Shown in pieces: positions 40,065 through 42,855 of a stretch of 57,182 nucleotides of DNA. The stretch lies in the sequence record DRR378314_1779; one strand, written 5' to 3'. The notes below the pieces were generated by a model. The model worked only from the letters and a program-made list of their open reading frames with translations, was not told where the DNA came from and did no database searches. The translations under genes and the position numbers were made by a program. Within the stretch, counting starts at the first letter, position 1; each line of letters begins with the position of its first letter.

Positions 40065-40988
40065 TCAACTCAGGCTTTCAAGTTTACCGTCGCGGATATG
40101 TTTCTCGCCACGGGCTTTAGCTAATTGAATTTGGCGCTCACGCTCGGCAAATCGCTCTTTTTGTTCTGCCGAGGTTTTGTCGTAGCAATGCGGACAACTG
40201 ACACCTTTTTGGTAATGTTCTGACTGCATTTCTTCAGCAGTAATGGGCATGCGGCAGGCATAACATTGGTCGTATTCACCCGGCTCCAGACCGTGCTTAA
40301 CGGTAACGCGTTGGTCAAAAACGAAGCACTCACCATTCCAGCGACTGTTGTCTTCCGGCATCATTTCCAGATATTTAAGAATTCCGCCTTTTAAGTGGTA
40401 AACCTCGTCAAAGCCCTGCTCTTTTAAATAAGCGGTCGATTTTTCGCAGCGGATACCACCGGTGCAGAACATAGCAACTTTCTTATGTTTTTCCGGATCC
40501 AGATGCTGCTTCACGTACTCCGGAAACTCGCGGAAAGTATCGGTCTTAGGGTTAATGGCGCCTTCAAAGGTTCCTACGGCGTATTCATATTCGTTGCGGG
40601 TATCAATAACCAGCACTTCCGGATCGGCTATCAGGTCGTTCCATTTCTCCGGGTCTACGTAAGTACCGACCGAGCTTTTGGGGTCAACCCAGTCAACGCC
40701 CAGGGTGACAATTTCTTTTTTCAGTTTTACCTTGGTGCGATAAAACGCTTGCTCGTCACTGGGGGATTCTTTGTGTTCAATGTCAGCAAAACGTTCGTCG
40801 GAACGTAAGTAATTCAAAACGTTGTCAATGGCTTCTCGGGTACCGCAAATGGTGCCATTAATGCCCTCCCGGGCTAACAACAAAGTGCCTTTTACATCGT
40901 TTGCAATAAGCGTCTGATACAGAGGTTCGCGGAGTTCTTTATAGTCATTGAGCTCAACAAATTTATACAATGCCGCACAAATATACAT
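40065..40988 (-). CDS. trhO: Oxygen-dependent tRNA U34 hydroxylase (rhodanese domain, YceA family)
   Basis: [51 protein letters not shown], and C-terminal CYAC/CPHC. Confidence 0.93.
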
Positions 40989-41008
40989 ATCATGTTACCT
41001 TTTTCAGC

Positions 41009-41032
41009 GGTCCGGAACGTAAATCCGGAGCC
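41009..41032 (-). promoter_or_regulatory. Leader hairpin resembling a tRNA anticodon stem-loop (UAC)
   Basis: mRNA sense GG(C)UCCGGA-UUUACGU-UCCGGACC just upstream of the trhO SD (AAGGU, 41001-40997). The hairpin is seen directly; its function is inferred. Confidence 0.5.
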
Positions 41033-41067
41033 TTCATTTAAATTGCTTTAGCAATTCGCGTAAAAAT

Positions 41068-41104
41068 CGCGCGGATTATACCGTTTTGATCCCAATCAGC
41101 GCAA
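41068..41104 (-). promoter_or_regulatory. sigma70 promoter for trhO with a GC-rich discriminator
   Basis: Minus strand TTGCGC-18 bp-TATAAT-CCGCGCG, typical of stringently controlled translation genes. Confidence 0.6.
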
Positions 41105-41133
41105 ATTAGGAACTCAGGGAGTAGTAAGAAAGC

Positions 41134-41892
41134 ATGATTAACGAAGCCTTGTTCTATGGCCTGGTACTCTTATCGGCCGCAACCTCTTTATTGACAGCCG
41201 TGGCCGGCGCCGGTGGGGGCGCTGTACTCATCGGTGTAATGGCATTAGTTCTGCCCGGCAGTGCGGTTATTCCGGTACATGGATTAGTGCAAATGGGGTC
41301 GAATGTGGGCCGAACCGGGTTGTCCTGGAAACACATTCATTGGCCTACCGTTGCCTGGTTTGTGCCCTTTGGTTTGTTAGGCACTTTTATCGGCAGTTTA
41401 TTATTGGTTCAGCTTCCGACACATTTTCTGCAAATTACCATCGCACTATTTTTAATCTGGCTAACCTGGGGACCTAAGTTGCCACAGAGTTTCCGTGGGC
41501 GTGCTGGTCTGGTCGGTGGTGGCTTGGTTACCGGCTTTATTTCTCTTTTTGTTGGTGCGTCAGGGCCACTGGTTGCCGCTTTTGTAAAAGCCCGATTTAG
41601 TCAGCGAATGCAAACCGTCGCGACGTTCTCCGCAGTAATGACCATGCAACACGCGCCTAAAGCGCTGGTGTTTGGCATGGCCGGGTTTGTATTTCAGGAC
41701 TGGCTACCGCTGGTATTAGCAATGATAGCGGCCGGTTTTGCCGGTACCTGGATTGGCCTGCACTGGCTGAAAAAAATTACTGACCAGCGCTTTGACCAAC
41801 TATTCCGTTTAATCATTACCTTGCTTGCTTTGCGCCTGCTTTGGGTCGCGCTTGAGCCGTTTGTCCCAGCGTTGACGAGCGTAGCGTCGTAA
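41134..41892 (+). CDS. TauE/SafE (TSUP) family transporter
   Basis: GAGGGAVL...IPVHG and GFISLFVGASGPLV repeat motifs; about 8 TM segments. Confidence 0.85.
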   Translation: MINEALFYGLVLLSAATSLLTAVAGAGGGAVLIGVMALVLPGSAVIPVHGLVQMGSNVGRTGLSWKHIHWPTVAWFVPFGLLGTFIGSLLLVQLPTHFLQITIALFLIWLTWGPKLPQSFRGRAGLVGGGLVTGFISLFVGASGPLVAAFVKARFSQRMQTVATFSAVMTMQHAPKALVFGMAGFVFQDWLPLVLAMIAAGFAGTWIGLHWLKKITDQRFDQLFRLIITLLALRLLWVALEPFVPALTSVAS

Positions 41893-42855
41893 ACTGGCTA
41901 TGTTATCGGTTTCATCCATGATGGGGGTACCGAGTATGGTTTCGATAATATCTTCAAGAGTGATGAGTCCCAGCCAGCTGCCGTGTTCGTCGTAAACCAG
42001 AGCCATATGCTGACGCTCTTTAAGCAGATGGCTCATTAGAGCCTCAACACTGACGGTTTCTGTGACGATCTCAACCGGTCGCACAATGTCTTTCAGCGAG
42101 TCTGATTCCTCAGCATCAAGAATATCACTACGAAAAACAATGCCTTGTGGCTCCTCGTCGGTATCAATGACCGGGTATCGGGAAAAAGGCAGCTTTCTAA
42201 TCCTTTCGCTGACTTCCGGCATGCTTAAATCTGGTCGAATGGATTCACATACTGTTCTTGGAGTCATGACCTGACGTACCCGAATTTCATGTAAGTCGAG
42301 AATGTTCAGAATGACCCGACGTTCGTCGTCATCTAACGCTTTTTCTTCGTGGCCAATAGTGGCCATGGCCTTAATTTCGGAGCGAACGTCAATGTCCGCT
42401 TCTCCGCTGCCAATGCGTTTGGTGATTTGATCGGAAAGCCAGATAAACGGCTTAAGCGATAAAATTAAAAAATTTAGTACTGGAGGTAGCATAGGAGCTA
42501 TCCCACGCCAGAATTTAGCACCTATGGTTTTCGGAATTATTTCTGATAGCACCAGAATAAGCAGCGTCATAACTGCTGAAGCTACTCCCAGATAACCGTC
42601 ACCAAAGACGACCCCAACTTGTGCTCCAACTCCTGCGGCACCTGCTGTATGAGCTATAGTATTAAGTGTCAGAATAGCTGCCAGCGGTTTATCGATAGAA
42701 TCTTTTAGCTTGCGCAACTGTTGATGGGTTTTAGGCCGGGATTCTTTTAGCTGGGCTATATAGCTTGGTGTAACCGACAAAATGGCAGCTTCTAAAACTG
42801 AACAAATAAATGAAACGCCAATGGCAATAACAGCAAAAACAATGAGTAGGAACAT
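41809..42855 (-). CDS. CNNM (DUF21) plus CBS-pair membrane protein
   Basis: SFICSVLEAAILS, ILTLNTIAHT, SEIIPKT, VMTPR, FSRYPV, GLITLEDIIE. Confidence 0.92.
   Translation of the reverse strand: MFLLIVFAVIAIGVSFICSVLEAAILSVTPSYIAQLKESRPKTHQQLRKLKDSIDKPLAAILTLNTIAHTAGAAGVGAQVGVVFGDGYLGVASAVMTLLILVLSEIIPKTIGAKFWRGIAPMLPPVLNFLILSLKPFIWLSDQITKRIGSGEADIDVRSEIKAMATIGHEEKALDDDERRVILNILDLHEIRVRQVMTPRTVCESIRPDLSMPEVSERIRKLPFSRYPVIDTDEEPQGIVFRSDILDAEESDSLKDIVRPVEIVTETVSVEALMSHLLKERQHMALVYDEHGSWLGLITLEDIIETILGTPIMDETDNIASLRRYARQRWDKRLKRDPKQAQSKQGND

Follow-up and report, generated by a model that had tools for sequence, protein, structure and literature searches.

A conserved, anticodon-arm-like hairpin upstream of trhO is a candidate cis-regulatory RNA element in several gammaproteobacterial lineages

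The window analyzed here, the whole 57,182-nucleotide (nt) stretch of record DRR378314_1779, carries on its minus strand a gene for the tRNA hydroxylase TrhO (40065 to 40988; ATG at 40988-40986) and, directly upstream of it, a hairpin shaped like a tRNA anticodon arm, which is the subject of this study. The 307-amino-acid (aa) product has the UPF0176_N, Rhodanese, and Rhodanese_C domains (Pfam), scores 343.6 bits against the NCBIfam equivalog NF001133 ("oxygen-dependent tRNA uridine(34) hydroxylase TrhO"; cut-off, 170), and is 34% identical to Escherichia coli TrhO (E value = 3e-47). Its active-site loop, CTGGIR, conforms to the CXGGXR motif as defined in excerpts of PMC6599085.

The element as captured by our covariance model (R1) spans 33 nt (41004 to 41036) and, like the Shine-Dalgarno (SD) sequence and promoter discussed below, lies on the minus strand. 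A 5' arm, UCCGGA (41024 to 41029), and a 3' arm of the same sequence (41011 to 41016; placed by sequence and pair counts) close a 7-nt loop, UUUACGU (41017 to 41023), which in tRNA numbering reads U32, U33, U34, A35, C36, G37, and U38. The inner stem in the window has 6 bp, whereas other family members mostly have 5 bp; positions 41028-41024 belong to the 5-bp stem common to the family, and the U41029-A41011 pair is confined to the window's genus. C41030 is bulged between this stem and two extending G-C pairs (C41010-G41031 and C41009-G41032), the 3' strand of this outer helix being at 41009 to 41010. The SD sequence AAGG (40998 to 41001) lies 9 nt past the stem and 9 nt ahead of the ATG. A first-pass annotation, made from the letters of the window, had drawn attention to this hairpin, and its stem, loop, bulged C, and two extra G-C pairs are present exactly as it described them, as are the SD sequence 9 nt after the core stem and a TATAAT hexamer at 41080-41075.

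RNAfold of the 33-mer yields the described hairpin (-12.1 kcal/mol, z = -2.29), an equally good fold is obtained for the opposite strand (z = -2.30), and folding of the whole 96-nt leader is not unusual (z = -0.91). Across the window, 38 hairpins combine a 6-bp stem with a 7-nt loop, versus about 25 in shuffled sequences, and 3 of the 38 have Y32-U33-R37, versus 1.45 in shuffles. Judged on the window alone, the trhO leader hairpin is not beyond chance, and the case for its reality is a comparative one.

For this comparison, we assembled 110 TrhO loci, comprising 30 from whole-genome searches (25 species of the window's genus and 5 other families) and the 80 closest loci in a species-genome collection. 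The set includes Idiomarina, Pseudidiomarina, Rheinheimera, Catenovulum, Kangiella, Psychrobacter, Marinobacter, Halomonas/Vreelandella, Pseudomonas, Microbulbifer, methanotrophs of the Methylococcales, and others. When the 260 nt upstream of trhO were scanned for the loop [A/C/U]UU[A/G]CG[N] with four or more base pairs closing it, 95 of the 110 loci proved to carry the hairpin, and the covariance model added one more (L108), for a total of 96. Many of the bacteria that have it live in the sea or in soil. Neither scan nor model found it in the other 14, which at that place also lack a hairpin with another anticodon of the 5-oxyuridine (xo5U) group or another U33-U34 loop; in several of them, trhO lies directly after another gene or a tRNA.

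The element aligned without gaps as 86 distinct 33-nt sequences (alignment A2), in which we scored an inner helix of 5 bp and, beyond a bulge, an outer one of 2 bp. Pairing in the inner helix reaches 97.2%, a percentage that is inflated by the selection for at least 4 bp, but such selection cannot generate many arm types around a constant centre. Two-sided changes occur at all five pairs, 22 different arm pairs are represented, compensatory cells number 119 (21.3 ± 3.8 in shuffles), and covariation scores 0.62, compared with 0.195 at most when the partners are slid. The outer helix of other taxa (alignment pairs G6-C30 and C7-G29) is 86.6% paired, with 14 changes from C-G to U-A, and between it and the inner stem lies a lone unpaired nucleotide on the 5' side. 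Of the 86 sequences, 61 have an uninterrupted stem of exactly 5 bp, 13 one of 6 bp, and 7 one of 4 bp, and U·U occupies the stem closing position in 5.

The loop of the family reads N-U-U-R-C-G-N. Position 32 is U in 81 sequences, C in 3, and A in 2; U33, U34, C36, and G37 are invariant (U33 and G37 each in 86/86), and position 38 is variable. Conservation in orthologs had been proposed in the first-pass annotation as a test of the hairpin, and the outcome is favorable, with a covarying stem and a retained 7-nt loop. It had further expected the loop centre to vary only among anticodons that carry 5-carboxymethoxyuridine (cmo5U). This expectation held insofar as the centre is always UAC (63/86) or UGC (23/86), but the range is narrow, and UGA, UGU, UGG, and UAG were never seen. 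A35 and G35 exchange between close relatives (e.g., L098/L099, L102/L103, and L017/L018), as expected if just the purine matters. A model-derived alignment of Pseudomonas loci gives the same loops as A2.

The hairpin keeps a nearly fixed position with respect to the gene. In 91 of the 95 motif-bearing loci, 14 to 24 nt separate the 3' end of the inner stem from the first in-frame ATG, and in relatives a purine-rich SD sequence begins a few nucleotides past the stem, often directly after the outer helix. Upstream, TATAAT (41075 to 41080) is the likely -10 element of the trhO promoter; it is exact in 25/25 loci of the window's genus, and 52 of the 95 motif-bearing loci have an exact TATAAT at a distance of 5 to 61 nt ahead of the stem. 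At least five of the seven nucleotides that follow it are G or C in 48 of these 52 loci, and in the window a GC-rich discriminator, CCGCGCG, is followed by AUUUUUA (41061 to 41074). A promoter scan did not call the hexamer because the -35 element is weak. The predicted transcription start, at about 41067-41068, would give a leader of about 80 nt. The placement proposed in the first-pass annotation, downstream of a -10 element and directly upstream of the SD sequence, is also found in relatives, where the -10 element is conserved.

Between the -10 element and the hairpin, the spacer differs in both length and sequence, even in the window's genus, and some taxa have 30 to 60 nt or an entire extra hairpin ahead of the element. 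A second small hairpin that the first-pass annotation placed in the leader (AAUUGC, UAAA, GCAAUU; 41041 to 41056) lies in this variable spacer and does form in the centroid fold of the leader in the window, but it is not conserved even in the genus, in which most relatives have another sequence, or nothing, in place of this spacer. Arms that vary and covary about a conserved, asymmetric centre mark an RNA hairpin and not a dimer operator on DNA, and the fixed distance to the start codon together with the variable distance to the -10 element points the same way. In Pseudomonas, one pair runs through G-C, G·U, and A-U, and another is U-A or U·G, as read on the trhO sense strand.

The covariance model was specific to trhO. 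In the window, R1 gave one strong match (38.7 bits, E value = 1.8e-9), the next being at 11.4 bits. In 41 whole genomes, all 29 matches with E values of <1e-3 lie directly upstream of trhO; these comprise 25/25 genomes of the window's genus and 4 others (G026, G031, G035, and G039), and a weak match in G033 also adjoins trhO. No second copy of the element before any other gene was found with R1 in these 41 genomes, which fits gene-specific rather than pathway-wide control. The best matches away from trhO have E values of at least 0.004 and lie inside long open frames. Second-tier matches in G020, G007, and G011, within open frames of 410 to 442 aa, were dismissed as chance, as was a weakly paired, intergenic one in G026. 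The genomes of L101, L099, and L107 have one match each, at trhO, and that of L073 has no match at an E value of ≤0.05, though the L073 locus was in the training set.

In a draw of Pseudomonas species, trhO was present in 31/31, and all 30 fetched loci have the hairpin (28 by model and 2 by eye). The whole-genome route with R1 recovered 10 of these 30 loci, along with 5 weaker matches elsewhere; it scores only part of the candidates and missed the other 20 Pseudomonas loci and L167, and its negatives are weak. In a class-wide search of 151 genomes, all R1 matches outside the genome nearest to the window (G001) were weak (E values of at least 1.2e-3), and none adjoined trhO. One of these weak matches (L121, 1476-1551, minus strand) corresponds to a real tRNA-Gln(UUG) anticodon arm, and another (L122, 1470-1554, minus strand) to a tRNA-Tyr(GUA) anticodon arm read in antisense, which shows the tRNA-likeness of the model. 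Overall, these comparisons show a real element whose structure is under selection and which is specific to trhO, adjacent to the SD sequence, and anticodon-arm-like.

To specify the resemblance, we used all 56 tRNA genes of G001. The anticodon loops of its six xo5U tRNAs are CUUACAA for Val(UAC), CUUGCAC for Ala(UGC), CUUGUAA for Thr(UGU), CUUGAAA for Ser(UGA), UUUGGGU for Pro(UGG), and UUUAGGU for Leu(UAG), and U33-U34-R35 is common to all six and the leader. The first-pass annotation had read the hairpin as a mimic of tRNA-Val(UAC) specifically, and this did not survive the comparison, since the Val loop is identical to the window loop at 4/7 positions, compared with 5/7 for Pro(UGG) and 6/7 for Leu(UAG), the best natural match. 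In addition, CUGGA/UCCAG, the stem of Leu(UAG), ranks second in frequency among the leader stems (12/86), and the Leu(UAG) stem-loop differs from several leader hairpins at position 36 only.

In E. coli, according to excerpts of PMC6599085, TrhO mainly hydroxylates tRNAs Ala1, Ser1, Thr4, and Val1 and TrhP prefers Leu3 and Pro3, and in electrophoretic mobility shift assays (EMSA) TrhO binds tRNA directly, with tRNA-Ala1 bound and tRNA-Leu3 not. The leader loop centres UGC and UAC are the anticodons of Ala1 and Val1. C36 fits the TrhO group of tRNAs, and U32 and G37 fit the TrhP group. The hairpin is best described as a generic, slightly chimeric xo5U-type anticodon arm and not as a copy of tRNA-Val. 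It shares with true xo5U anticodon arms the 5-bp stem, the 7-nt loop, U33, U34, and R35 but, unlike true tRNAs, has no D, T, or acceptor arm. ARAGORN found no tRNA genes and no full cloverleaf in the window, and an Rfam scan of 40500-41600 gave no tRNA match.

These patterns are best explained if the hairpin is a cis-acting RNA element, conserved within the 5' untranslated leader of the trhO mRNA. With respect to its function, the reading that we favor, and to which we give roughly even chances, is autogenous translational repression by TrhO through substrate mimicry. Free TrhO would bind the hairpin as if it were the anticodon arm of an unmodified substrate tRNA and, once bound, would exclude the 30S subunit because the SD sequence starts just a few nucleotides downstream. 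When unmodified U34 tRNAs are abundant, they would compete for TrhO, and translation would resume. We favor autoregulation because of the exclusive linkage to trhO, the adjacency to the SD sequence, the arm geometry, the U34-purine step, and the free choice of A or G at position 35. We infer that the hairpin is transcribed, that TrhO is its binder, and that binding represses translation; the link to O2 raised in the first-pass annotation is purely speculative. As a whole, that earlier interpretation is partly supported, and its proposal of autoregulation seems plausible.

Several observations weigh against repression through substrate mimicry. The real Val and Ala loops match the leader loop at just 4/7 positions, and the closest natural loop is that of Leu(UAG), a tRNA left unbound by E. 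coli TrhO in the EMSA of the PMC6599085 excerpts. The combination of C36 and G37, invariant in the leaders, occurs in none of the 56 tRNA genes of G001, and it is unexplained by plain substrate mimicry. The loop statistics of A2 are partly circular, as the pattern chose the loci, a concern softened by the 14 motif-less loci, which show no other U33-U34 loop, and by the independent, model-derived Pseudomonas set with its identical loops. Wobble counts in the broad alignment (7 G·U versus 5 A·C) do not by themselves fix the strand, and contigs from an RNA library (one sample, from a strain about 6% different) cover the whole 1 kb with no transcript end. Finally, a TrhO homologue was found in 51 families of an even draw of 151 gammaproteobacterial families, and only 2 of the 29 best loci of this draw, with the window's relative excluded, have the hairpin (L164 and L167). 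The element is thus patchy and lineage-restricted, and TrhO has no general need of it.

The loop composition may instead suggest an operator for a different factor, either another enzyme of the xo5U pathway (CmoB, CmoM, or TrhP) or an unrelated regulator, which would couple TrhO synthesis to its own state. Such a factor could explain why C36 and G37, not accounted for by the known substrates of TrhO, are invariant and why the loop is nearest to those of Leu(UAG) (6/7) and Pro(UGG) (5/7), the tRNAs that E. coli TrhP prefers in the excerpts of PMC6599085. On the other hand, no candidate co-varies with the element in the present data, and in the 41 genomes the element lies just before trhO and before no other pathway gene. 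TrhP cannot be the general binder because G039, in which no Peptidase_U32 match and hence no TrhP was found, retains both trhO and the hairpin. We consider a different binder unlikely.

Comparably unlikely, in our view, is a role that involves no dedicated protein, in which the 5' stem-loop would stabilize the mRNA against 5'-end-dependent decay or set basal initiation at the SD sequence. In many taxa, the -10 element is just 17 to 23 nt before the stem, which would bring the hairpin close to the transcript's 5' end, and a U-rich tract runs ahead of it. However, a stabilizer needs neither a 5-bp stem nor a fixed 7-nt loop with four invariant positions and one purine-only position, and in other taxa 30 to 60 nt or an extra hairpin precedes the element.

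Slightly less probable again is the idea that the leader is a true substrate as well as a decoy, such that TrhO would hydroxylate U41021, the U34 equivalent, of its own mRNA, a modification that CmoB may extend. If this were the case, the covalent xo5U mark on the mRNA would log TrhO activity and oxygen supply and would alter binding or translation of the mRNA, making mRNA modification a feedback switch.

We regard as improbable a tRNA sensor that, like a T-box specifier, works by loop-loop pairing and reports the modification state of tRNA. Read as codons, R35-C36-G37 gives ACG or GCG, which pair with the anticodons UGU and UGC through a U34-G wobble strengthened by xo5U; the invariant C and G and the free first purine are compatible with pairing to G35 and U34 in two of the tRNAs that TrhO modifies. 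Codons that end in G, GCG among them, are decoded less well when 5-hydroxyuridine (ho5U) is lost, as reported in excerpts of PMC6599085. Such sensing leaves the invariant U33 and U34 without explanation, and UCG and CCG would be equally suitable yet never occur. Moreover, three pairs are weak, the nucleotide 3' of the "codon" is variable, and there is neither a conserved partner structure nor a match to the T-box or another Rfam family. Least probable of all, and only marginally credible, is an inverted repeat of the trhO promoter region to which a transcription factor binds as a dimer, since the identical palindromic TCCGGA arms in the window, the distance of at most about 60 nt from the -10 element, and the equal folding of both strands are set against 22 covarying arm pairs that flank an asymmetric centre which is itself conserved (a dimer operator would show the reverse), G·U intermediates on the trhO sense strand in Pseudomonas, and a start-codon distance that is fixed while that to the -10 element ranges from 5 to 61 nt.

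A number of more local readings of the hairpin were considered and rejected. A pseudoknot of the loop UUAC with a downstream GUAA of the SD region is possible in the window, but G35 variants have no matching GCAA, and a -10 element within the loop (TACGTT) would likewise be lost in G35 variants. Reading U-R-C-G as a UNCG tetraloop would involve a U33-N38 closing pair, which is possible in just 41/86 sequences, and we discarded this tetraloop as the main fold. A kissing interaction with the anticodon of tRNA-Tyr or tRNA-Cys was rejected, as the partner would switch between sister species. Sequestration of the SD sequence by a longer outer helix is possible in Pseudomonas and in some taxa with U-rich 5' flanks but is not general. 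An intrinsic terminator or attenuator was rejected because the 3' flank of the stem on the trhO strand, ACCGCUGAAAAAGG, has no U-tract. A "terminator-like" call on the plus strand at 41011-41029 is a pattern artefact, and no plus-strand gene ends there; the plus-strand flank of the hairpin is A-rich in other taxa.

If TrhO does repress its own translation, the closest parallel is the E. coli thrS operator, through which threonyl-tRNA synthetase represses its own mRNA by means of anticodon-arm-like hairpins. In both cases, an anticodon-like hairpin with a 7-nt loop adjoins the SD sequence of a gene whose product binds anticodon arms, and the proposed logic is the same, with tRNA and mRNA competing for the protein and the protein competing with the 30S subunit. 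Unlike thrS, trhO encodes a tRNA-modifying enzyme and not a synthetase, its element consists of a single hairpin (about 33 nt), whereas the thrS operator has four domains and two tRNA-like arms, and the trhO loop is chimeric and matches no single tRNA; here, moreover, binding and repression are putative. T-box leaders are similarly tied to recognition of the tRNA anticodon, but they are large, multistem RNAs that bind the tRNA itself and switch between terminator and antiterminator, whereas the trhO element is a 33-nt hairpin that resembles a tRNA rather than its complement and has no T-box match.

Excerpts of PMC6542539 describe a yeast aminoacyl-tRNA synthetase that binds an anticodon mimic in its own mRNA. 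That system resembles the one proposed for trhO in that a tRNA-binding enzyme is autoregulated via an anticodon-like mRNA element in response to tRNA level, and it differs in being eukaryotic, in concerning a synthetase, and in having been found by RNA immunoprecipitation sequencing (RIP-seq) rather than by conservation (PMC6542539). Ribosomal-protein leaders such as that of L20, as portrayed in excerpts of PMC1888825, are also structured leaders that mimic the RNA target of the protein and repress translation, as we propose here; they mimic rRNA, however, and many are in Rfam, where the trhO element has no match.

The trhO leader hairpin is a real and lineage-restricted RNA element and, as far as our literature searches reach, a previously undescribed one. 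The absence of a described RNA family, suspected in the first-pass annotation, is borne out by a scan of 40500-41600 against Rfam 15, in which the only match up to an E value of 10 was a chance one of 16.6 bits to a viral CRE, elsewhere in the region. Full-text literature searches on trhO, yceA, UPF0176, COG1054, or rhodanese leaders and on anticodon mimics found no description of the element, and no report of a bacterial tRNA-modifying enzyme that controls itself via a mimic of its substrate tRNA was found in the literature searched. To our knowledge, the known cases of autoregulation by substrate mimics are aminoacyl-tRNA synthetases and ribosomal proteins. The excerpted texts of PMC6599085 and PMC12288880 contain none of the terms "UTR," "hairpin," and "autoregul," and "stem-loop" occurs once, in PMC12288880, for the tRNA anticodon stem-loop. 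The main text of PMC5737381, which reports 224 motifs, has no rhodanese, anticodon, or hydroxylase term, although an unnamed entry in its supplementary lists is possible, and in the excerpted portions of a 2026 review and a 2025 preprint TrhO is mentioned only as an enzyme or a zinc-binding protein.

Whichever factor binds it, the hairpin is a short, clean, and well-covarying candidate for a cis-regulatory RNA family. Should TrhO be the binder, the element would reveal how cells adjust the level of a wobble-modification enzyme to their supply of unmodified tRNA, and it would provide a minimal, 33-nt ligand for studying the recognition of U34; the mechanism of the rhodanese-type hydroxylase is still described as open in excerpts of PMC6599085. 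The presence of the hairpin in 30/30 sampled Pseudomonas species makes it testable in organisms with good genetics.

The region upstream of trhO takes different forms among lineages. In Pseudomonas, a BolA-like gene (Pfam PF01722) precedes trhO (seen at L102, 779-1180, and also at L095, L100, L103, L110, L202, and L219), and the gap between the two genes holds a -10-like TAGAAT, a GC-rich hairpin followed by eight U residues, and then the anticodon-arm-like hairpin. The GC-rich hairpin looks like an intrinsic terminator, and, since there is no room for a promoter after it, the trhO mRNA either reads through it or starts at its foot; it may constitute a second layer of control. At loci of the Alcanivorax type (L059, L079, L094, and L104), trhO directly follows an upstream frame, with no hairpin, and the end of this frame resembles the Pseudomonas BolA-like protein.

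R1 has no match at trhO of E. coli K-12. The sequence upstream of the gene there (L126, 11740-11810) has a 3-bp GGA/UCC stem with a U-rich, 9-nt loop containing UUAC, and the order of features is a -10-like hexamer, a GC-rich stretch, a U-rich tract with UUAC, and then GCAGGA before the ATG. This E. coli leader looks like a degenerate remnant, or decayed relative, of the element.

Beyond the discriminator, many taxa have a U-run that begins at about +2. A perfect -10 element with a GC-rich discriminator resembles stringently controlled promoters, and a U-run at such a place could permit reiterative transcription. In the window, the upstream neighbor of trhO is a divergent TauE-family gene (41134-41892, plus strand), which makes the region between the two a divergent promoter region. 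The TauE-family open reading frame converges with a CNNM/CBS open reading frame (41809-42855, minus strand), the two overlapping by 84 nt at 41809-41892, and one end of these overlapping frames may be over-called.

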